From: Narcine bancroftii
Taxonomy: Eukaryota
Assembly (NCBI RefSeq): GCF_036971445.1
Contig: NC_091470.1
Location: forward strand, 310,496,001-310,560,000
DNA length: 64,000 bases
Reading direction: 5' to 3'
Part shown: positions 22,501 to 58,587 of the stretch, in pieces
How positions within the stretch are numbered: the stretch's first letter is position 1
How the letters are laid out: each line of letters begins with the position of its first letter
Notes under the pieces: generated by a model
The model's database searches: none
What the model saw: only the letters and a program-made list of their open reading frames with translations
What the model was told of the DNA's origin: nothing
Program-made: the position numbers and the translations under genes

Positions 22501-25500
22501 TCTTTAGTTAAGTGCAGCTTCTCTGGAGGCAAGTGGCATGCTTTCATATGGATAGGAGGGCTCTTAGAACAAATACGATGAGTAACACCGTGCTTTGCAG
22601 TGGAGGGAGAAAATTGTTGAGTAGTAATCTCAGGGAAATCTTCCAACAGCTTGGAGAATTCATCCACTGGTTTGCTTAATGTTTGGAGGCGCAGAGCAGG
22701 AGTATGGGCGTATGCCAGAGGAATGGTCTGAAAAGTAGTTCCATCTATTGGCCGACACCCTTTTAAGTCGACGAGGAATGAATGAGCCTGAAGAAAATCT
22801 ACACCAAGCAAAAGTCGGGATACTGATGCTATAATGAATGGCCAAGTGTAAAGATGATTCTTGAACTTGACATTCATTCATCTTCCTGGTGTCAAAGGTC
22901 GAAATATTGGAACTGTTAACTGCTCTGAGTTGCAGATCCGGGGTAGGATGGCATGTGTCAAAACCAATGGGTGGAAATACACCAACCTCTGAACCCATGT
23001 CCACCAGAAAGTTTTGCTGAGACAACTGGTCCCATACATACAGTAGGCTTGCAGATTTCTTGCCAATAGCTGCAGTCCTCTCTGGTGATTGGCCTGGGCG
23101 TTTCCCATAAACACGCAGGGTGGAAGGCACTGAAATGAAGTGTCCACAGGCTGCTTGCTTGACTTGGGGCATTGCCTGCTTGTAGGGAGAGATGTGCTAA
23201 GAATACTAGAGTGTGACATGGAGGGGTTGATTGTGCAGTTTTGTCTTTCCTTGTTGTGTTTTCTAGCCAGCCATAGAATGTCTGCCTCCGCCACTACAGC
23301 CCTTGGGTCTTCAAATTAACACTTCGAATACAAGAGCCTAATATCATCTGGCATTTGGTCTAAAAATAGCTGCTTGAATAACGTATTGGGCCTTTCACCA
23401 GCTGCCAGGAACAGCATTTTATTCATTCGTTCTGAAGGGGTGCGGTCTCCTTACCCATCGAGATGTAGTAATTTGGCTGCCCTTTCCCTACGGGACATAC
23501 CATATACACGTCAAAAAAGTGTTTTTAAAGCGTCATACTTGCTGGCATGTGGTGGATCCCGTAGGAAGTCATCTATCTTCTTAGCGACATCCTGGTCTAG
23601 GGTATTGACAAGATGGTAATAATGAGTGGTGTCCAATTCGACCTTGCGAAGGTGAAATTGTGGTTCAACCTGTTGGAACCACAGTTCAGGCTCAGCTGCC
23701 CCAAAAGATGGTAGCTTCACAGCAACAGCTGCAGAGTCCATGTTTGTCCAAAAATATGTTTTTGGACTTGTTGGGGTCGGGAAATAACCGCACAACACAT
23801 TTCTAGAGTGAATCAAACTGATTTACTCTTCATCAACCTTTTAAAAGCCAGAATCACATGCTCTGACATCACATGGCCGGTTCGATGCCTCCTGTGTGTT
23901 GTAGTCCCTCCGTAGCCCTGGTACAAAACAATCATATTAGACAGTTCCTATGGAATTATAAGGAACCAAGAATTGCACTGGAAAACTGACATGGAAGTAT
24001 GGGCTGGGAGGACATCCAGACTTTAAAAATTATTGGCTAGATTTCTCACAGCCTTCTGTCTTGGATTCAAATGGGAATGTACTCAGTGGAGGAGGAGGAA
24101 GTGAAGGATTTTATCTATAAATGGAGTGTCAAATCACTAAAAAACTACATATGATCAGAACATGGCAAGAAATTAATGAACGTATAGGGAAACAAAAGTA
24201 GGGATATCAATGGAAGCACCATTTTATAAAAATGTGTAATTGAACGTAGGCAATAGAATATTAAATTTGTGGTATGACAAAGATATAAGATGTATTAAAG
24301 ACTGCTACATGGAAGGAACTCTTAAATCTCCTTTAACAATTTAAATACAAATATGGAGTGGTCAATGGGATCTTCTGTTTTCTCCAGCTGACATCATTCT
24401 TTAGAGAAAGATGGGGGCCAACATTGACCCCACCTAAAATTAATGAAACTGAATGAACAGACTGGACAGGGAATACACCCAAATTTATAACAAAAATGTA
24501 CTATGCTCTCCAGAGTGTAAGTCCAAAACCAGAATTGCAGAGGTCAAGGGAAAGATGGGAGTCAGACATGGGGGTGGTGATTCCAGAAAGAAGCTGGTCA
24601 TGCTGTCTAGCGATGTGGATTCGTTCAGTATAATTTTTTTCCACCAACTATATCTTACCCGCAGAAATATCAGAGATGAGTTTCAGATGTGGGACTAAGG
24701 CAGGAACTTTTCTACATGCTACTTGGTCATGTGGTAAAGTGAGGCCATTTTGCCAAGACATCTCAGAAAAATTAACCAGGATAACAGGAGTGCCTTTGCA
24801 GGTAACCCAGAGCTATATCTACTCAGTAATTTTATGGAGATAACTAATAAATTGAATCAATATCAAATTTCATTTATAAAAATAGCACTGGCGGTAGCAA
24901 GAAAATGTGTTACAATCATTTAGAAGTCTGACTCCCCTCCACTTGTAGCACAATGGATTGCAGAAATGAACAGCGGACCGATGCAAGTGACTGGCCACCC
25001 TAGCTCTCCCACCCCCGGCACGACACAGCACCTGGCCATTTCATCTCCCCAAAGAGATCGATTTGGCCCAGTTCGTTTTCGTGCAGAGGGGACCACAAGG
25101 TGCACCACTGCAGCAACCGTACAAGGGTCCATACAAAGTCTTGCTCTGATGGAAAAAGTAACATATCATTTATAGAGTAAATACAACACCTTTGTAAAGT
25201 TCTGGTAGCCATACCTGGACCATATGGGGCACCCAAGGACAACCTGCAGGCTTCAGCAGCGGAGATGGTCTATGGCACACCGCTTTCCCTGCCGGGTGAG
25301 TTTCTCTTTGGGGAGATGAATACAGCAATAAAAAGAAAAGGGGCTATAAAAGTAACTATTATATATACAAAAATGTAATTTCTTCAATTTTATTCTACAT
25401 ATTTAAAAGGTATGTAAGCTCTGACAGTGTGTGGATTTACATGTATGGTTGTGAGGTGGGTGGATGGAGGGACTATTTTGTTTGTTGTTTGTAAGAAAAA

Positions 25501-25516: not shown

Positions 25517-28500
25517 TGTGGCAGTGTGAGCATTGGAAGAAACACAGCCACCATGTTGAGGGTCGTTAATGACTTTTTATTCAAATACAGCACGCCCTTT
25601 TAAGGGCAGCATGAGCTCAGTCACCTGGTGCATTGTGACATCATAATCGCTGCCCAGGGTGCGTGCTGGAAGGGATGCTGAAGTCCGAGAGAAACCTGAT
25701 GATGCCATTTCCCCATGGCTGCCCCACTATGTGGCAATAAAAGCGGGGCCAGTTCGCCATGATGATGTGCGCCGCTACACCTCCTTTCACTTTGGTGGCT
25801 GGACCCGGCACTTGGGCGCGGCTGTCTGCACCGGCTCTGATAAGTCCAGATGGGCCGCAATCAGGTGGTCCACTGTAAAAAGTTCCTCTCTCCCTCCAAT
25901 GTCCAGAGTGAAGGTTCCGCCGGAACAGTGCAAGACTTTGTATGGACCCTTGTACGGTTGCTGCAGTAGTGCACCTTGTGGTCCCCTCTGCACGAAAATG
26001 AACTGGGCCGAGTCAATCTCTTTGGGGAGATGAAATGGCCAGGTGCCGTGTCGTGCCGGGGGTGGGAGAGCTGGGGTGGCCAGTCACTTGCATCGGTCCG
26101 CCAGCAGGTTTATGTCAATGGCAGTGGTGTCATGGTCTGGGCTGAAAAACTCACCCGGCAGGGAAAGCGGTGTGCCATAGACCATCTCCGCTGCTGAAGC
26201 CTGCAGATCGTCCTTGGGTGCTGTCCTAATCCTGAGGAGGACCCAGGGTAGTTCGTACGCCCAGTCTGGTCCAGAGAGCGTGGCCATAAGTGATGCCTTC
26301 TGGTGCCTGTGGAACCTCTCCACCAACCCGTTGGACTGCGGGTGGTATGCTGTGGTGTGGTGGAGCTGGACCTCCAGGAGCTTTGCCATCTGAATCCACA
26401 GGGCAGACATGAAATGTGCCCCTCTGTCTCTAGTAACGTGCGCCAGGACACCGAAATGGGCAATCTAATGGCTGACCAGAGTCCTGGAGCACGTCTCCAC
26501 GGAGGCCTTCTTAATCGGGACAGCCTCCGGCTACCTTGTGGTCCAATCCACCACCGTGAGGAGATAACGAACCTCCTTGGACACTGGCAGGGGCCCAACG
26601 ACATCAACGTTAATGTGTTGGAATCTGCGAACTGCTGGGTCGAAATTCTGGCTGGGGGCTCGCGTGCGTCGCTAGACCTTGAATGTCTGGCACCTGGTAC
26701 AGTTCCTGGCCAGTTCCGCCGCCTCCTTCTTTAGCCCGTGCCACATAAACCACTCCGTGACCATCCGCACAGTTGTCTTTACCGTTGAGTGAGCGAGATC
26801 ATGGATCATACTGAAGACCTTTGCCCTCCAGTGCGGCGGGACCATCGGGCACGGCGTGCCTGTTGAGACATCGTAGAGCAATGTGTCTGGACTGCTGGGC
26901 ACCCGGACATCCTTGAGTTTGAGGCCCGAGATGGCAGTCCACAAGGCCTGCGTCTCTGCATCATTCCTCTGTGCCTGAGCCAGTTGCTCATAATCGAGGC
27001 CGGGCACGAAAGTGTTGATGGCTGGATGGGAGAGTGCATCCGCCACAACATTGCCCTTGCCGGCCCTGTGTCGGATGTCAGTCGTGAACTCAGACACGTA
27101 TGAGAGGTGGCACTGCTGTCTGGCGGACCACGGATCCTTGGCCTTCACCAGTGCTTGAGTGAGGGGCTTGTGATCCGTGAAGGCTGTGAATGGCCTGCCC
27201 TCAGGAAGTAGTGGAAATGGCGGATGGCCAAATACAGCGCCAGGAGCTCCCGGTTGAAGGCGCTGTGTTTGACCTCCGGTGGGAGCAGCTGCTTGCTGCA
27301 AAAGGTCAGCGGGCGCCATTGTTCATTGAGTCATGATTCCAGAACCCTCCACACTGCCGTAGCTGAGGCGTCCACGGAGAGCGCCGTGCGCGCCTCTGGC
27401 TGCAGGTGCACCAGCAGCGTGGTGCTGGCTCAAACCTCCTTTGTCACAATGAAAGCCCTGTCCGCCTCCTCTGACCACAATAAAGTTTTTGGTGGCCATG
27501 AGTGCGAACAATAGGCGCATGGTGCGCGTGGCTCCGGGGATGAAACGATGGTAACCACCATCCCAGTGAACTCTTGGAGGCCTTTCAGGGTAGAGGGTTT
27601 GGGGAATCGTTGAACACCCACTACTTTCTCCGACGCTGGCACGGCCCCAGCCGCCGAAATAGTGTGCCCCAGGAACTGGAGGGACTCCTTACTGAACTGG
27701 TATCTGGCCGTGAGGCCAAAGTCCACTAGCCAGGCAAAGGGTATGCGGAGGTGGGCTTTGTGTTCATCGCGCTGGCGACTGGCAATGAGAATATCGTCCA
27801 GGTCTTTTCCAACCGCATCCATGAGGTGCTGGAATGTTTGGGCTGCGTTCATTAGACTGAAGGGCAAATGCAGGAACTCGAAGAGGCCAAAAGGGGTGAT
27901 AGCCGTCTTACCCACATTGTCTGGATGCACTGGGATCTGATGGTATCCCCACATGTGGTCCACTTTGAAGAAGACCCGTGCGCCGTGGAGGTTGGCGGAG
28001 AAGTCCTGTATGTGGGGTACCGGGTACCTGTCAAGGATGGTTGCACCTCTCAACCAATGGTAGTCTCCGCATAGTCTCCAGCCCCTGGACGATTTCGGGA
28101 CCATATGGAGCGGCGATGCCCAGGCGCTATCCAAGCGCTGGATGATTCCCAGTTCCTGGAGCCTGGAAAACTCCTCCTTTGACTGCTGGAGCTTCTCGGG
28201 CGCCAGGCATCTGGGTCTAGCATGCAGCAGGGGGCCCTGTGTGGCGATGTGGTGGAAGACTCCATGCTGGGGCAGGGCGGTGTTGAACCATGGCTCTAAG
28301 ATGGCAGGGAATTTGTCCCTTACAGCAGCTACGGCGGCGATTTCAGGCCTGCGGGCTTCTGCTGTGTCCAGTCAGGTGGAGTGGAATGTTCAAGAGTTGA
28401 CCAGCCTTTTCCCCTTCATGGCAACCAGTAGACTGTGAGCTCTGAGGAAGTCGGTCCCTGACAGCGCGGTGCTCATGGAGGCTAGGACTTCTAGTGGAAC

Positions 28501-29693
28501 TTCTCTTTCCCAATCTGGATCTGTGCCCTGTGGGTACCATAGGTCCTGATGGTGGAGCCATTGGCTGCCCACAGAGTTGGACCTCGAGATCGGGTGTGAG
28601 TCTCTAATGCTGTGAGTGGGGGGGGTGGGGGGGAACGACGCTGAGCTCAGTCCCTGTGTCCACCAGGAATCGGTGGCCAGTGGATTTGTCCATCACATAA
28701 AGGAGGCTGTTTGTGTGGCCAGCCGTCGCAACCATCAACGGCAGCTGGCCTTGTCGTTTCCCTGAAACCCGCAGGGCTGGCAGCACTTTCGGGCTTGCAC
28801 TCCCCAGCGCTGGTGGCAGAAACACAAGGTCGACTGGCCCTCCTCTGTCGTGACTTGCAGTCGGCTAGCTCCTGGACATACCACCTGGTTGAGGGCTGCT
28901 TTGTTCTCTCTCTTCATGCGCCAGAGGGCATCCGCATGAGCTGCTGCTCTCCGCGGGTTCGAAAAGTCTTCATTTGTGAGGAGCAGCTGGATGTCCTTCA
29001 GTATCTATTCCAGGAATATCTGGTGGAAGAGAAAACCAGGGCCAGCATTTCGTCCATCAGTGTTGATGGACTACAGTCCCCAAGCCCATCTAGGTGAAGG
29101 AGCCTGGAAGCCCATTTCTGGGGAGTTAGCTCAAAAGTTCCAAGCAGCAGGTCTTTTAGGGCGGTGTACTTGCCCGTAGCCGGAGGGTGGTGGATGATGT
29201 CATCCACCCTCACTGCCGTATCTAGGTCCAGAACGCTTACGACATGATAGAACATCGTGACATCTGAGGAGATGTTGTGGAGTTGAAATTATGCTGCCAC
29301 CTGCCCGAACCACGTTCTCAGTCGGAGGGTCCAAAAGGGGGGAAGCTTGATGGAGACAACATTAACCTCTGCTGAATCTATGGTGTTTTTAGTCCAGAAA
29401 AATGTCTGGGCTCGTCAGGATCACCACTGTGGCAGTGTGTACAGTGGAAGAAACACAGCCACCACGTTGACGGTCGTTAAAGATTATTTTTTATTCAAAT
29501 TCAGCAGGCCCCTTTAAGGGCAGCATGAGCTCAGTCATCTGGTGCATTGTGACATCATAATCCCTGCCCAATGTGTGCGCTGAAAGGGATGCTGAAGCCA
29601 GAGAGAAACCTCCGACAACGCCATTTCCCCATGGCTCCCGCCAGGTGGCGATACAAGCGGGGCCGGTTCGCCATGAGGATGTGCCCCACCACA
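25517..29693 (-). mobile_element. Gypsy LTR retrotransposon, degenerate, tRNA-Trp-like PBS
   Basis: LTRs at 25517-25779 and 29428-29693, 4-bp TSD gtat. A PBS-like tggtgatcctgacg lies next to the 5' LTR. Contains FLVDTG protease, RT, TDHKPL RNase H, and HPQSNGLVERFH and GPY integrase motifs. Confidence 0.94.
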
Positions 29694-43200: not shown

Positions 43201-44738
43201 GCAAAAATTTTACAATTAACCATCAAAACCCTCCCAGCATTTCCTTCAAACGATTCCAATTCAAACAGAAATTTCTTATGAATTAAAATTGCTACACCCT
43301 TTGCTTCAGAATTAAAGAAAATACATGACCAATCCACTCTCTGTTGAATTTCAAATGTTCCTTTTCAGTCCAATGTGTTTCTTGCAAAAAAGCAATATCA
43401 ACTTTCATTTTTCTTAAATAAGCCAAAACTTGTTTGCGCTTAATTGGGTTATTCAAACCTTGAACCTTAATAGTTGCAAAATTCAAATTAGACATATCTT
43501 AATCTAATAATATATTCCACTACTATAAAATAATACTCCCCTTCTAATTCCCTTAATATTCTTACCCCCCCTGATGTAAATATTTTGAAAAAGGAAAAGA
43601 AAACTAACAATCCCCAAAACAAACTGCTAAAAAGTAGTAGCTCCCTAAAATCTGGGTGTGGTAAAACCCACTAGTGGCAGATGACTAAAGGTCTCAGTGT
43701 CATCCAGCCCCCCGAGTCAGACTTTCACAAAATACTGAAACAAAAATAATCAACCCAATGATTCCAGTCCCAATGATTGTTCCGGATCTTCAATATCAAT
43801 AAGACTTTGTGTCAATTCAACTTTCTTCCCATTCTTTCCATGTTTTCCATTCTTCCCATTTCCATTGCCATTTACCCTCCTCTTAGGTGACAGTGATGAC
43901 GATCGTCCATTTCCTCGTAAATCTGGCAATGAATTTGCAAAAATTAATGTGTCATGATCATTTTCAAAGAATTGAGATTGAAAGTTCCCATAAAAAACTT
44001 TTAACACGGCCGGATAATGAAAGGCAAATTTATATCCCTTTCGCCACAGTACTTTAGCTGAATTAAATTCTCAGCGCCTTCTAATAATTTCTCGACTCAA
44101 ATCCGCATTAAAAAATCCTGTTATTCTGGACCATCATTGGAGCCTGATTCTGTCGTGCTTTCTGCACCGCCATGTAATGGAGGATTTAGACCAGCTTATG
44201 CAAGAAGGGATGCAGTTGCATCAGAAGACATAATCTAAATTTACACCATGAGGCCCAGAGATGCAGTTTTCTTTTGTTGGTCGCAGACTGTCAGGAGACC
44301 TTGAAGATAATTAAATCATTTGTTCAAAGAGATAAGATCTGAAGTAAACAACTTTTGGGTAATATAAGCCATGGTCCCACTGCGGAAGTTTGAGACTCTC
44401 CAAGAGGTGGCAACATCTCTCAACAAGAAGAAGAACTTCAAGAGTCCAACTAACGTCCCGGTCGAGGGAGGTAGAGAAGCTGCTACCGGCACCCCGAAAA
44501 CCTACTGCAAGTGTGCAGTCGTCGCCTCGCTTTGGCAGTTGGGACCAGTCCAGGCATTGATAAGTATAATTGGGAAGGGCTTGCATATTGTAATGTGAAT
44601 TCAGCTAGCTATTTAGTAATAAAGACTTGTATAAACTGAACTGCTCTCGGTGTGTGTGTCTATTTTCTTTCGGTAGCTCAAACACTGTGACCAATCTAAA
44701 ACGATCAAAATGAAAGGTATAAGTTTACCCAAGACAAT

Positions 44739-44756
44739 TGGCGCAGCGAGCAGGGT
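44739..44756 (+). promoter_or_regulatory. Primer-binding site complementary to the tRNA-Ser(UGA) 3' end
   Basis: TGGCGCAGCGAGCAGGGT is the reverse complement of ACCCTGCTCGCTGCG-CCA, the recalled vertebrate tRNA-Ser(TGA) 3' end. It lies 2 nt after the LTR's terminal CA. Confidence 0.82.
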
Positions 44757-44766
44757 TGGTCTCAAG

Positions 44767-45399
44767 ATGTTTCGTCGAAAGAAAGAGGTGAGCCCTGAGC
44801 AGTTCTTGACTCCAGGATGGAATTCCAAAGACGATGGGTTTGGCATGTTGGCCAATACCCTGTCTTTGTTGGGACCACCCCTCAGTTGGGATGAGAAGTT
44901 AGATCCATCAAGTGCGCCTCTGGGAGAGCGGGTTGCCACTCTCCTTCGAGACAGTAAATTTCCTGTTAAAAAGGGGACGCTGACAGACAGTTTTTGGCTG
45001 CTGGCCACAGCCTTACGCCACTCTGTTCAGCATGAATCAGAATCAGTAAGGCGAGAAGTAGAATCTCAGCGTAAGAGAGAGCAACTAGAGGAGGAGCTAG
45101 AAGCCCTGCGACAACACTGTTCCATGATGAGTGAGATTGTTTGCACCAGTCAGGACCGAGCCAAAGAATGGGAGGATAAGCATGTCCAAACGATCTGCCG
45201 TAATATTAAACTCCGGCAGCAGTACTGTGCAGATAAAGAAAGGCATGGAGTAGAACCCGATCCACATTTGGGAATTGTCTTGGGTAAACTTATATCTCTC
45301 ATTTTGATCGTTTTAGATTGGTCACAGTGTTTGAGCTACCGCAAGAAAATAGACACACACACCGAGAGCAGTTCAGTTTATACAAGTCTTTATTACTAA
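44767..45399 (+). CDS. Truncated gag-like N-terminus (coiled coil) reading into the antisense LTR
   Basis: ATG lies 10 nt after the PBS, in frame with ORF 44710-45399, with no stops. The last ~40 codons come from the inverted LTR. Gag identity is inferred from position only. Confidence 0.5.
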   Translation: MFRRKKEVSPEQFLTPGWNSKDDGFGMLANTLSLLGPPLSWDEKLDPSSAPLGERVATLLRDSKFPVKKGTLTDSFWLLATALRHSVQHESESVRREVESQRKREQLEEELEALRQHCSMMSEIVCTSQDRAKEWEDKHVQTICRNIKLRQQYCADKERHGVEPDPHLGIVLGKLISLILIVLDWSQCLSYRKKIDTHTESSSVYTSLYY

Positions 45400-48131
45400 A
45401 TAGCTAGCTGAATTCACACTACAATATGCAAGCCCTTCCCAATTATACTTATCAATGCCTGAACTGCTCCCAACTGCCAAAGCGAGGCGACGACTGCACA
45501 CTTGTAGTAGGTTGTCGGGGCGCCGGTAGCAGCTTCTCTACCTCCCTCGACCGGGACGTTAGCTGGACTCTTGAAGTTCTTCTTGTTGAGAGATGTTGCC
45601 ACCTCTTGGAGAGTCTCAAACATCAGCAGTGGGACCACGGCTTATATTACCCAAAAGTTGTTTACTTCAGATCTTATCTCTTTGAACAAATGATTTAATT
45701 ATCTTCAAGGTCTCCTGACAGTCTGCGACCAACAAAAGAAAACTGCATCTCTGGGCCTCATAGTGTAAATTTAGATTATGTCTTCTGATGCAACTGCATC
45801 CCTTCTTGCATAAGCTGGTCTAAATCCTCCATTACACACCATTCATAATATCATTTCTCTGTCCTGGTATTTCAAACAGCGAATCAAAACTGCTTATGGT
45901 GGTGGGCCTGGAAACGGTTTCTTCCTTAGTGCTCTATGTGCTCGATCTAACTCCAGACCATCCAGAAAAAATTCCTTGCTTAACACCTCAGGAATCCATT
46001 TCTTAAAAAACTTTACTGGATCAGAACCTTCTATATCTTCTGGAAGACCTACTATTTTTACATTATTTCTTCAACCCTGATTTTCTAATGAATCAATCTT
46101 CTTCAATAATTCCTTCTTCTGAATCCCCCAATCCACGAATGTCATCCATTTTTCCATATTTTGCTCTACTTGATTCTTACATTAAAAAAAACTTCAATCT
46201 TTTTAAATGTTATCTTGTACAGTGTCCACTGATTTTATACATCTATTAACATCACTTTTAAATACATTAATACCTTGCTTCATACAAGTCATTTCTTCAC
46301 ATATAGTAGTCATTTTAGTTTTCACTTCCATAAATCCTTGAGTCATCTGAGTAGACATCTGTATTGATATATGTTCTATTTGATGAGCAATCCCTTCCAA
46401 AATTGTGAACACAGAATCCATTCCAGGTTCCATCACCTCCTTTTGAGGCCTACCTTTTCTGGTCTCAGTCCCCATTTCTTCCTGTGTAAGTTCCAGTAAT
46501 GTTGATCTTTCTTCCGCCTCTAACATCATAGGTCCTCTTCCAGTGCGGCTGCTGGTCTGAACGCCTGTCGAAAGCGTGCCGACCTCTTCAGCCCACCGCT
46601 GTTCAGGCTCCCCCACAGCCCACACCTTGTCCAGTAGTTCCCAGACCCACAACACTCCACACATGCCCGGCAAAGTCATCTTCCACACAGGTGCTACACT
46701 GCGCGCTCCAGACTGCCAGGCAGTATTGTGGGCTCACGGGTCTGTCTTTGGTCAGCTGATCCGCCCACGCCCCTGGACTCACGGGGGCACAAGTCAGGGC
46801 CAGCTGAGCCCGTCACTGAGCCGGCGCCATCTTGCAATCAGTGCCGGCGTAATACTTAACCGACCAGGAGTCCTCTGAGGCTTGGGGACTCCAGGTGATG
46901 ACTCCATGGCTTCAACTTGGTAAGTAGGCCTCAGTTCTTCAACACTTTTGTAAGGTAATTTCTTTTGCAATTGAGTTTTTGAATTTTTCACATTTGCAGC
47001 CATTGCAATCCTCCAATATTCCAAAGTCTATAAATATTATTTTTAACCACCTTTACAAATTTTAAATTCGGGTATTTAGAAGTCTAACTGGGGGAAGGTG
47101 GAACCACACGTCTTGCCATGCCCCTGCCATTTCTTTTCATTTGAGACAATTTACAATAGTGTAATATGAGATGTGGGAGGAAACCAGAAGGCCTGGGGAA
47201 GTGTATGCAGTCAAAGGAGGAAAATGCAAACACCTCACAGATAATTATTTTACTTTTTAAAATATTTTTATTGATTTTAACATACAAATGCCTATCACAA
47301 ATTAAATAAATATTAATCAACAATCTATTCATATTTGTTTATTTAACAATATTTCTTTAAAACATTAAATTCGATCACTATGGTAATTAACCATCTATCT
47401 CTTTCTCATAAGATGTTCAAAAATAGTTCTGGATAGAAAATAAAAAAGACTAAATTAAACAATTCCTTTATTTAAACAAAGAGTAAATTCTGTCTCATTT
47501 AATGATATGATCTATGTCAACCATATTTAAACCCATAGATAACCAACAGATAAATCCAGAGTCAGGACTGACCTAATTGCTTAACTGTGCACTACCTGCT
47601 GTGCCACTGTTCACTCCCAGAATAACTTTCACAAAAATAATGCTGAATGTTCAAACCCAATTTTGTCTGAAGAGCCTGATGCATTTTTCCTGCAGTCATA
47701 TGCATGGTGCTGTGTCACCTTTTGCAAGACAAATTTCAAATAGACTGATCCAAATGGTAAACCCATTCACCACATTCCAGATGCTTTTCCACATTCCCCT
47801 TTAAAATTAAGTGGCCAGAAGATGAAGATTGAGTGATAAAGAATGAAAGAAATGATACCAAACTCCACCCCCACCAAGGCTTCACAAGGCACTTCCAATG
47901 ATGTTGTCATCAATTGCATCTGTGACCTCCAAAAAAACCTCAAATTCCACCATTTAAGTGTGAAATTTTTTGAAGGAGAATGTTAAATTAATTTGAAGTT
48001 ACAGTGTGCCCAATAAAAGTAATACTAATGAAACAGGTTAGCCTAATACAATAATAAATGTATAAACCCAATGGATGGGAAGATTTGAATTGTACAATAA
48101 TCTGATTGAATATTCTGCTGTTATCCCACAG

Positions 48132-54400: not shown

Positions 54401-57400
54401 TCTAGTACCTTCGATCAACCACATTAAACAGAGACTTGTGATTAAAAGGCTTTAATCACCCTAAGACATCAACACATCTCATGTTGCTGGCCCAGTTCCA
54501 AGGCAGGTACTGAGGGAGGAGCTTGGCTGTAGCAGCCTTTATAGGGATTTCCAGGAGGGAAGAGTCACAGGTTCAGGGGGCAGGACAGCATGTACAATAC
54601 AAACAATACAGTGGTTGCCCACATTCCCCCTTTTGGAACAAAGTCAGGCGGGGTGATGTGATTCAATGTTCGTTACAGGTTCAGCCCGTCCAGTGGTCTC
54701 GTCTGTGGCTGAGACCATCGTAAGGTTTCCTGGATGGTGTCTTGTGCAACAGGCTGTGCCTTTAGTGGCTGAGGTGGTGTGGGGGGGGGGGGGGGGGTTA
54801 GTAGGACCATGGGGTTGCTTGGTCTGGGGTTGGGGCACTGTGTCAAGTGCAATTAGTGGGAATGTTTGGCCAGGGTTACTGTAAGGCGATGTTGATTGCT
54901 TGGTTGAGGTACTCCACGCAAGCATATTGGGGGTATGTGTGGAGGAGGTGGACCTTCTCGACCAGGGGGACAATCTTGTGGTATCTGATATGCCTTCAGG
55001 GCAGTACAGGACCAGGGTTTATTAACCAGGATGGCAGTGTGGTTCCCAACACCAACTTCCTGGGGAAGGAAAAGGCCTTTCATGCAGTGTCACATTAGTA
55101 GCAGGACAGAGGAGGGACCTGGTGGCATGGAGTGCCTCAGGGAGGACATCTTACCACCGGGAGATGGGGAGGCCTTTTGATCCGAGGACTAGGAGGACTG
55201 CCTTCCAGACAGTGGCATTCTCCCTTTCTATCTGACTGATCCCCTGTGGGTTATAACCCATGGTCCTGCTCGAGGCTATGTCCTAGGATAGTAGGTACAG
55301 GTGCAGCTCCTCACTCATAAATGAGGATCCCAGTCACTATGGATGTAGCAGGGGTAACCGAACAGAACGAATATGCTGTGCAGTGCCTTTATGACTGTGG
55401 CTGTGGTCATGTCCAGACAGGGGATGCCAAAGGGGAAGTGGGAGTATTCGTCGATGATATTCAGGAAGTATACATTTCACTTGATGGACGGAAGGAGGCA
55501 CATGAAATCCATTCTCAGCCACTCGAAGGGGTGGGTAGCTTTGATGAGATGGGTTTTGTCTGGCCTTTAGAATTGGGGTTTACACTCAACACAGACTGGG
55601 GAGCTCTGTATCAGCTCCCTGATATCCTCAACCAAGTAGGGGAGGTTACAGGCTCTAACAAAGTGGTAGAGCTGGATGACCCCGGGATGGCAGAGGTTGT
55701 TGTGGAGGACTTGGAGGTGGTCCAACTGCGTGTTGGCAGATGCCCCCCAGGACAGGGCATCGGGAGGCTTGTTAAGCTTCCCAGGCCAGTACAATATCTT
55801 GTAGTTAGTTGTGGATGGATAGCTCAATTCTCCACCTCAGGATCTTGTCATTCTTAATTTTTCCTGCACCGTTTGCTATTGAACATAAAGGCAACTGCAT
55901 GTTGGTCAGTCAGCAGGGTGAATGGTTTTCCAACCAGGTCATGCCTCCAGTGGCACACAGCTTCCACTATGGCCTGGGCCTCCTTTTCGATGGTTGAGTG
56001 CTGAAGTTTGTGGCCCTGCAGGATTTGGGAAAAGAAAGCTACTGGCCCGCCCACCCAGTTGAGCGTGGCAGCCTGGGCAAAGTTGGACGCATCACTCTCC
56101 ACCTGGAAGGGAATGGATTCATCCACAGAATACATCATCACCTTGACGATGTCACCCTTGATGTGTGTGAACGCTGCTTGGGCTTCCGCTGACAGGGGAA
56201 AGGTGGTAGATTTCACCAGGGGGCAGGCTTTGTCCATGTAATTTAGGACCCACTAGGCGTAATACAAAAAGAAGCCCAAGCACCTTTTCAGGGCCTTGAG
56301 GGTATGAGCAATGCGGGGCATATGTGGTCAGGATTGTGAAAAATGACACCATTCTCTACCACACAACCCAGGATGGCCAGTCATGAAGTACTGAGCACAC
56401 ACTTTTTTTGGTTACAATATAGGTTGAGGCTTTTGGCCATCTGGAGAAATTTCTGCAGGTTAGCATCATGATCCTGCTGCTCAATTGTCCAAGTAAGGAA
56501 ATGTAGACTTGGCTCCATAGTCATCCACTGTTCAGTTTTTCTCCCTCTGGAAGAAAGAGACCCCATTGGTGACCTCGAAAGGGACTCAGAGTAATTGATA
56601 GAGGCGGCCGTCTGCTTCAAAGGCAATGTTACAAGCTGACCTCTCGACGGATTGGTAGTTGGTGGTAGGCCAAGTTGAAGTCAGTGGTTGAGAAGACCCA
56701 GAACTAGGCGATCTCATTTACCATGTTGGCAATGCAGGGAGTGGGTAGGCATCCAGCTGGGTGAACAGTTTATGGTCTGGCTGTAGTCGATGACCATCTG
56801 CTATTTCTCTCCGCTCTTAATAACCACCACCTGTGCCCTTCTGCCTGAAGCAGTTAGACCTGCTTTGATGAAGGCCCTGTCCCCGGGACTGTATTGCCTG
56901 CTCTTGATGGTGACCAGCTTACACTCGGGGGTGAGGTTCTCGAACAGGGGTGTTGGTGGGACCCGGAGGGTAGAGAGACCACAGGTTATATTTGGGTTGG
57001 GGAGAGGAGAATTGGGTGGTTTAAGAATTTGCAATTGCAGATTATGAGGGGCGGTGAGAACAGTCAAACTACATTTGAATGCTCTTTAGTTGGCACTGGA
57101 AGTCCAATCCCAGTACGACTGGAGTGCAGAGCTGTGGCATGATAAGGATCTTAAAGTTCTTGTGCACCATGCCCTGCACAGTCAGAGTCACGGCATGGTG
57201 CAGCACCCGTGGATCTCAGCCAAGTGGGATTTGGAGGCCAGGAAGATGATAAATTTTGCCAGGGTTACCATGACTGAGTAGCACTATACTGTGCCCAGAT
57301 GAATGAAGCTCTCTGTGCTCCCTGTATCAAATAAGCAATTTGTGACGTGACCATTTACCTCAATGTTCATCATGGCCCTGGCCAGTTGATGTGGGCAGTC

Positions 57401-58587
57401 CTGATCCAGGGTAATCAAGGCCAATGCCTGGTTGCTGTCAGAGTTCCTACTATAGAGTTGGTTTGTGGTGCTGCTCTTTGCCATACCATTTTTCTGCCCC
57501 CCTTGGTCCCACTGAGCCATTTCCCATGACCGGAAGTGAAGCTGGAAGTGATGTGGTCTAAGATGGTGGTGCTGCTGGCCACACACGGCGCTGCTGGAGA
57601 AATGTTGGGACCTACATACCTTCCTGTAGTGTCCTGTCTTCCTGTAGGCAAAAGCATGTAGCGTTTTGGGCAGGCAGTTTTCTTGGGGATGCTTCACATG
57701 GCCGCAGAAGTAGCACTTTGGGTGCTCAATGGTGGTGGCAGTAACTTGGGACCCCACATCCCAAGATGGCAGCGCCTGAGTTCCTCATTTAGCAGCCACA
57801 TTCCCTGAGGAGAAGACCTCTGCATGCAGCTGCATTGTCTCAAATGCTTTAGCCAGGTCAATGACTACTTGCAGGCTTTGATCGTCCTTTCCCAGGAGTC
57901 TCTGACTGATGTAATTAGACTTGAATCCAGCCACATCTGAATTGTGCATCAGGCCTTCTAAATGGACAGCAGCAGAGACTTCTCTGCAGTCACAGGCTTA
58001 CCCCAGCTCTCACAAGACCCACATGAATTCGTCGACTGACTCACCAGGCACTTGTCTACGACTGCCCAGAAAGAATCTGGTGTAGATGACATTTGTTGGG
58101 GTCTAATGTTTCTGCAGGAGCTCCACTGCAGTTGAATAAGTAGTTCTGTCCCTTATCATCTGGAAGTCTCAATGGCCGACCTGAGCAAAGAGTAGATCTC
58201 ATTTGTCTTCCTCATTGTGCATGTCGTTGCTTCTCATGAAAGTGTTGAGTCAGTGCAACCATTGGTCAAATTTGACTGAGGGCCTCTAGATCTTTAGGGT
58301 TGGTGTCCAGTTTATCCACCAGTATTGCCTTGTCCATGGCCCAAAATTTAAGGTAATTAAATTTCAGTGCTATCGATCAACCTCATTAGACAGAGAGTTG
58401 TGATTAAAAGGCTTTAATCACTTTAAGACATCAACAGATCTCACATGTTGCTGGCCTGGTTACAAGGCAGGTACTGAGGGAGGAGTTTTGGCATAACAAC
58501 CTTTATAGGGATTTCTGAGGGGAGGAGTCACAGGTTCAGGAGGTGGGCCAGCACATACAATACAAACAATACATTAGTTGCACCACA
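54401..58587 (-). mobile_element. Gypsy-type LTR retrotransposon with CCHC gag, degenerate
   Basis: LTRs at about 54401-54623 and about 58363-58587, TSD cgaac/agaac, PPT at about 54624-54634. Contains a CYFCGHVKHPQENC knuckle, LFDTGS protease, ESDAS/TDQ RNase H and an H..LCHPG integrase motif. Confidence 0.88.

Follow-up and report, generated by a model that had tools for sequence, protein, structure and literature searches.

An endogenous retrovirus of Narcine bancroftii with inverted long terminal repeats, probably inserted through two U3 ends, and further same-end insertions of its family

In the textbook account of retroviral integration, a U3 end and a U5 end of the same cDNA are used together. 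DIRS-1 retrotransposons have inverted terminal repeats and a tyrosine recombinase and are not known to have an integrase, a target-site duplication (TSD) or a tRNA primer-binding site (PBS), and autointegration yields inversion circles in which a long terminal repeat (LTR), PBS and gag are followed by an inverted LTR and the processed CA joins viral DNA directly. In vitro, the integrase of type 1 human immunodeficiency virus (HIV-1) gives concerted products from U5/U5, U3/U5 or U3/U3 pairs of ends, mostly with a 5-bp duplication (PMC8742673, accessible part). In cells, one-end aberrant proviruses carrying extra inverted viral DNA have been described, mostly with large host rearrangements (PMC5041404, accessible part). 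Here we describe an element with inverted LTRs at 44168-45841 of a 64,000-nucleotide stretch of the Narcine bancroftii genome (GCF_036971445.1, contig NC_091470.1, positions 310,496,001 to 310,560,000; the whole stretch is called the window). It is probably a dead-end insertion of an ordinary endogenous retrovirus (ERV), in which the viral integrase concertedly inserted a mis-assembled reverse-transcription product via two U3 ends.

The window element consists, in order, of cgcca, a 564-bp LTR (termini TGTAATGG...CCCAAGACA), AT, an 18-nt PBS, ∼530 bp of leader and gag, a filler of 4-5 bases, AAT, the reversed LTR and cacca (Table 1). The LTR pair was aligned over 561 columns and differs by 14 substitutions (9 transitions) and one 3-bp indel; the PBS pairs with the 3' end of a host gene called tRNA-Ser(tga) by ARAGORN (15/15 encoded bases plus CCA). 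A preliminary description of this locus had claimed the inverted LTRs with this number of differences, the AATAAA, the AT and the 18-nt PBS for tRNA-Ser, and all of these were borne out. It had also claimed an open gag-like frame; the frame, with its ATG at 44767, is indeed open for 210 codons, but only the first ∼167 are gag and the remainder runs into the antisense LTR. A Pfam search of this frame found no family above the cut-off, and at the age of the element an open frame of ∼167 codons would need no selection. Two features had been overlooked: the filler, which has no counterpart at the same place in ordinary copies, and the end of the inverted LTR, which on its own strand reads CA-ATT and not CA alone. 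Instead of the two direct LTRs of an ordinary provirus, with U3 and U5 as outer ends, both outer ends here are the same processed LTR end, flanked by a TSD of normal length. The element has no pol or env. Neither a match resembling a polypurine tract (PPT) beside either LTR nor a direct R repeat within the element was found, so normal reverse transcription could presumably not copy it.

Both exact U3 termini lie outside, within one insertion with a 5-bp TSD. The host is a long interspersed nuclear element (LINE) that is collinear on both sides of the insertion, with endonuclease and reverse transcriptase (RT) matches downstream. The target pentamer occurs once in each of the 11 other copies of the host LINE (5 CACCA, 4 CGCCA, 1 CGCCT and 1 TGCCA), and the CpG change seen in the right flank (CACCA) is thus also present in 5/11. 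Because all 11 copies hold the site singly, cgcca/cacca is one 5-bp TSD at an often-decaying CpG, in agreement with the single TSD with one CpG-type change described earlier. Two pieces of the interrupted host frame, which we take to be L1 ORF1, gave no match in a Pfam search. Short-read joints that skip the element were found at multi-copy depth and fit paralogous LINE sites, and for these reasons they do not represent an empty allele.

The order LTR-PBS-gag followed by an inverted LTR is shared with autointegration inversion circles, but in the window ATT and filler intervene and the U3 ends join host DNA; an autointegration product was rejected on the CA-ATT and the filler, as ordinary copies have other bases at this place. 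A DIRS-1 retrotransposon, which also has inverted terminal repeats, was rejected on the rve integrase of the parent, the tRNA PBS and the TSD. By analogy, the window element may work like same-end concerted integration as carried out in vitro by the integrase of HIV-1: two like ends were inserted together with a normal TSD, although the donors there were separate synthetic DNAs and the product a linearised plasmid, whereas here the insertion is in germ-line DNA and the inner ends are joined (PMC8742673, accessible part). The aberrant proviruses of avian sarcoma-leukosis virus (ASLV) and HIV-1 likewise have unprocessed or truncated viral ends and extra viral DNA in either orientation, but one of their junctions is host-made, whereas both junctions of the window element look integrase-made (PMC5041404, accessible part). 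An abnormal host junction lacking a TSD of normal length is not found in the window element.

Nine further same-end insertions of this ERV with a 5-bp TSD were found, four U3/U3 and five U5/U5, spread over four contigs and none built alike. All ten elements end exactly at TGT or ACA. Their TSDs are perfect in 7/10 and have one mismatch in 3/10 (chance per locus ∼0.0014 and 0.02, respectively). In a census of the first 100 listed of the 781 matches to U5 plus ATT (contig C1), 95 elements were obtained and all were mapped. Like ends with a 5-bp TSD were present in 6/95 (Wilson interval 2.9-13%), namely U3/U3 in L037+L053 and L099 and U5/U5 in L056, L057, L102+L174 and L133; U3/U3 alone accounts for 2/95. 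Beyond the census, L094+L079 came from other lists, L185 from the control set, and L194 was picked by eye. The rate is a floor, because the complete far end lay outside the examined stretch in 19 of the 79 loci of L095-L173. The census motif is biased towards multi-unit elements and those carrying a PBS, and it misses most solo LTRs; the census is built on individually examined loci, not on a genome-wide pattern for all inverted pairs.

Table 1. Coordinates of the window element and its target, and loci of the same-end insertions
Feature	Position in window, or loci (TSD mismatches)	Strand	Remark
Host LINE, first open reading frame (ORF) region, decayed, interrupted by insertion	43753-46200	-	
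Left TSD copy, cgcca	44168-44172	+	
Left LTR, U3-R-U5, 564 bp, TGT...ACA	44173-44736	+	U3 end is an outer, integrase-type junction
AATAAA in left LTR	44618-44623	+	
AT dinucleotide, LTR/PBS boundary	44737-44738	+	
PBS, 18 nt, complementary to tRNA-Ser(UGA)	44739-44756	+	
gag 5' part, ∼167 codons, broken off	44767-45267	+	Ordinary copies carry on with different sequence
Filler of 4-5 bases at inner joint	45268-45272	+	Resembles the U5 terminus and also the end of a PPT variant
ATT beyond terminal CA of inverted LTR	45273-45275	-	U5 terminus left unprocessed, with AT and the first base of the PBS
Right LTR in inverted orientation, 561 bp, 97.5% identity with left LTR	45276-45836	-	U3 end is the second outer junction
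Right TSD copy, cacca, one CpG-type change	45837-45841	+	
U3/U3 same-end elements	L037+L053 (0), L094+L079 (0), L099 (0), L194 (1), window (1)		
U5/U5 same-end elements	L056 (0), L057 (0), L133 (0), L102+L174 (1), L185 (0)		

The LTR and gag of the window element belong to an abundant ERV, with 781 exact genome matches to its U5 end plus ATT. The preliminary description had called for an autonomous parent, and one was found: natural copies have gag, protease, RT, RNase H-like, integrase and env frames in gag-pro-pol-env order, a PPT and direct LTRs ending TGT...ACA, with RVT_1, rve and TLV_coat domains in L005, L008, L009 and L006. The family makes a 5-bp TSD, as 54 ordinary LTR pairs gave 44 with identical flanks, 4 with one mismatch and 6 with more mismatches. 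The nearest solved structures to the RT are those of murine leukaemia virus and foamy virus RT. In a similarity search the closest RT matches were 44-74% identical and came from cartilaginous fishes, amphibians, bony fishes, reptiles and birds; most of these vertebrate proteins are unnamed, and many contain a dUTPase domain. TGT/ACA ends, a serine tRNA PBS and a 5-bp TSD are of the class III XtERV-S/ERV-L kind, with which the parent also shares a YIDD-type RT and gag-pro-pol-env organisation (PMC8278194, accessible part). We infer from these shared features and the RT similarity that the parent is an ordinary, class III-like gag-pro-pol-env ERV; the window copy differs from that class in its inverted LTRs and in having no PPT, pol or env.

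The inner joints involve several kinds of viral ends. In the window, the inverted LTR ending CA-ATT meets filler and then antisense gag. L037 is a whole provirus whose 3' LTR, ending CA-ATT, is joined to a 240-bp inverted U3 piece; in L079 the 3' LTR has been inverted where it stands, at the PPT, and ATT is present here too; and in L099 a broken-off pol is joined to a 120-bp inverted U3 piece. L194 has an LTR, AT and exactly the 18-nt PBS, the extent of plus-strand strong-stop DNA, followed by antisense internal sequence, and its joint shows microhomology of 8/9 bases to the single comparator found. Among the U5/U5 elements, L185 is a provirus 3' end joined backwards to part of an LTR, and L056, L057, L102 and L133 lack a U3 start and are made of R-U5(-PBS-leader) units that are ∼100-190 bases long and point both ways. 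These units would correspond in extent to minus-strand strong-stop DNA with repeated early jumps. The ATT behind a 3' LTR is the unprocessed cDNA end, composed of AT plus the base opposite the last A of the tRNA. Genome-wide, CA-ATT not followed by G gave 65 matches vs. 14 for CA-AAT not followed by G. The ATT had no explanation by the TSD in 18 of 38 scorable events (the window included) vs. 0 of 12 controls (Fisher p = 0.002, hand tally); 10 decayed PBSs and 6 loci with an unseen left end had been removed, and three duplicated rows were counted once. Unprocessed U5 ends are over-represented in this genome.

Other unusual ends were noted in the same family. In L206:1420-1540 (G000:C9:89119950 region) an LTR U5 end is followed by AT and ∼55 bases of reverse-transcribed tRNA-Ser, far past the 18-nt PBS, which by its sequence is read-through into the primer tRNA fixed in the genome. 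The solo LTRs L042:1960-2040, L040, L038 and L078:5992 retain CA-ATT (or CA-AT) before the TSD and may be direct insertions of LTR pieces rather than recombination products; in L042 the last 9 U5 bases are repeated behind the ATT and then processed. Two unrelated solo LTRs (L059:6036 and L075:6037) are each followed by the same 10 bases, beginning with ATT, and have different left flanks. The 3' LTRs of L054:6757 and L195:6942-7086 continue into part or all of the PBS, in L195 with 144 bases of leader; L195 had been examined as a possible convergent pair and its LTRs are direct. L055:3688-4838, L151, L161, L134 and L144 are direct-orientation insertions whose 3' end is a partial LTR (R-U5 after leader or pol, most of U3 missing in L144); the 5-bp flanks match in L055, L144, L151 and L161, and the left flank of L134 is outside the view. 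They likely reflect early minus-strand jumps. A provirus with 3' CA-ATT recurs at G000:C8:316.8-322.1 Mb and on contigs C109-C123 and C193, with an identical right flank in the three copies examined (L061, L062 and L092), and is likely a segmental duplication. L078:568-1078 and L081:4018-4046 hold inverted LTR pieces whose ends are not LTR termini and that lack a TSD; L081 has a 19-bp terminal inversion with ATT.

The origin of the two LTRs can be followed best in L094+L079. Its left LTR falls inside a 100/100 clade of very young LTRs, whereas the inverted LTR falls outside it, as do the PPT variant and part of the interior; the two LTRs have 1 vs. 18 mismatches to a marker copy. None of 41 ordinary pairs of this subfamily straddles the clade line, and their median divergence is 0.26%, compared with 3.2% for the LTRs of L094+L079. 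A repeat unit found in both of the L037 provirus's own LTRs is missing from its inverted U3 piece. The lineage split and the missing repeat unit require two templates; they show two DNA molecules in L094+L079 and suggest them in L037.

In the proposed mechanism, the inverted LTR of the window element would be either a piece of plus-strand strong-stop DNA (U3-R-U5-AT-PBS), with a single PBS base left after trimming, or a second cDNA's LTR. The U5 end of this LTR, still unprocessed, would have been attached in reverse to a cDNA that had broken within gag, a short filler lying between the two, and integrase would have paired the two U3 ends after this joining or just before it. We moderately favour a joint made before integration, by template switch or end joining in the reverse-transcription complex; alternatively, host end joining could have connected two chromosome-attached molecules after integration. 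The U5/U5 sisters would likely be the mirror case, formed from minus-strand strong-stop pieces. Integration through two U3 ends had been proposed in the preliminary description and is supported by both exact U3 termini inside one 5-bp TSD; its suggestion of an aberrant cDNA made of two joined molecules also finds support.

Several observations weigh against this mechanism or qualify it. The two LTRs of the window element group as sisters with 99/96 support; they differ by 2.5%, and the nearest of 203 other LTRs is 3.9% away, so that this element alone gives no sign of two source molecules; the partners in L099 and L194 are likewise each other's closest relatives. Sister partners in these three elements would fit two copies of one source as well as self-copying. 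The divergence of 2.5% resembles that of older ordinary pairs (median 3.05%, n = 10, and 3.5%, n = 1), and both LTRs may therefore date from the insertion. The reading of the ATT presupposes that RNase H leaves the last A of the tRNA on the U5 end, and the ATT in L037, L079 and the window provides no independent count because these loci were partly picked via the ATT motif. One TSD base differs between the flanks (cgcca vs. cacca), the short TGT/ACA terminal inverted repeat would also offer a later rearrangement a microhomology of 3 bases, and among the listed pieces of the short-read contigs from 4 of 8 public runs, which are dominated by other copies, none crosses the inner joint.

The lack of a short-read piece across the joint speaks for an assembly artefact from palindromic reads or two separate insertions at one site. 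Either is nevertheless highly improbable: the arms differ at 14 sites and an indel, spread evenly over both LTR branches, there is one TSD instead of two, the host LINE continues collinearly to the left and right, and nine independent parallels exist on four contigs. The existence of at least ten same-end elements, together with one microhomology joint common to the U5/U5 elements L057 and L102, could point instead to a propagating non-autonomous family with inverted LTRs, the undescribed family offered as one branch of the preliminary description. The builds differ among all ten elements, however, and the window element has no PPT and no direct R. Among the 40 candidates scored out of 1603, only the window matched its inner junction in full length. 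Of the other 64 loci with U5 plus ATT not followed by G, 55 were examined and none has the window joint; the remaining 9, assumed to be copies of one duplicated locus, come from the C8 316-322 Mb cluster or from small contigs. The joint was also absent from 206 other loci compared. U5-to-U5 and U3-to-U3 junctions within 14-30 bases gave 0 matches each, integrated 2-LTR-circle junctions gave 0 matches, and a U5 end joined to a reverse PPT gave 1 match genome-wide, which is L079. Several loci sharing the inner junction with different TSDs were thus not found; the junction is unique among the loci compared, hence there is no propagating family, and we consider this explanation the least credible of all. 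The other branch, a one-off event, holds for the window copy with its unique junction and fails for the phenomenon, as at least nine further insertions of the same-end type stem from this ERV.

An ordinary provirus could also have been inserted first, and later repair or replication could have deleted most of it, copied the 5' LTR backwards and rejoined the 3' flank via a 3-base ACA microhomology. Such a history explains why the LTRs of the window copy are sisters, and it accounts for its filler and for its ATT, which would be a copy of the 5' LTR-PBS junction. It would require exact arrival at an LTR end in 10/10 same-end elements, and it offers no route to the U5/U5 elements lacking U3 (L056, L057, L102 and L133), to the two-lineage LTRs of L094+L079 or to the ATT behind the 3' LTR of L037. 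The scarcity of imprecise inverted pieces lacking a TSD, of which just 2 loci (L078 and L081) gave examples, argues against it as well, and we regard this history as unlikely. Less likely still is that one U3 end was integrated and the free end primed host synthesis on viral DNA, followed by host repair joining, as in the ASLV and HIV-1 aberrant proviruses. This ERV family does have unprocessed U5 ends without TSD, and extra viral DNA, in one or the other orientation, has been reported to be attached to aberrant ends, but the usual outcome is large host duplications, deletions or inversions with one abnormal junction (PMC5041404, accessible part), and not exact LTR termini at both junctions with a 5-bp TSD, ten times over.

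Concerted insertion via two U3 ends thus remains our preferred explanation of the window element. Beyond it, we lean slightly towards same-end integration being a regular in vivo pathway of this retrovirus, in which like ends, U3/U3 or U5/U5, are brought together by its integrase, often out of two DNA molecules and out of strong-stop intermediates, producing several percent of germ-line insertions and leaving overlooked inverted-LTR fossils. LTR finders that require direct repeats would likely miss this class, and the class may therefore be general. If 6/95 holds for the 781 motif matches, a rough extrapolation gives ∼50 same-end insertions genome-wide. Tens of such insertions would place the pairing of like ends in the germ line, beyond the test tube, and sequence alone could then tell how often two molecules enter one intasome. 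The fossils, if correctly read, would record errors of intasome assembly and reverse transcription base by base, and could show which of the strong-stop intermediates serve as substrates and at what positions the R boundary and the RNase H cuts lie. U3/U3 copies have two inward-facing promoters and might naturally give rise to double-stranded RNA directed against the family. The open literature searched contained no genomic report of same-end proviruses that have a TSD; subscription journals were mostly outside this search, so absence from print is not established. Nothing on such proviruses appears in the accessible parts of PMC7060167, PMC7944446, PMC11054761 and PMC2857682.

Local inversions of the provirus interior were seen at L082:9500-9650 and L063:936-1323, around a hairpin of the end of a repeat, presumably 5S-like or other; they could be insertion-linked inversions or assembly palindromes. 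Elsewhere in the window, two old LTR-like elements with direct repeats 85% alike lie at 25517-29693 and 54411-58587. The former, which we take to be Gypsy-like, holds RT-like frames; at 24973-25320, fragments of its 3' region are found again, one of them inverted.

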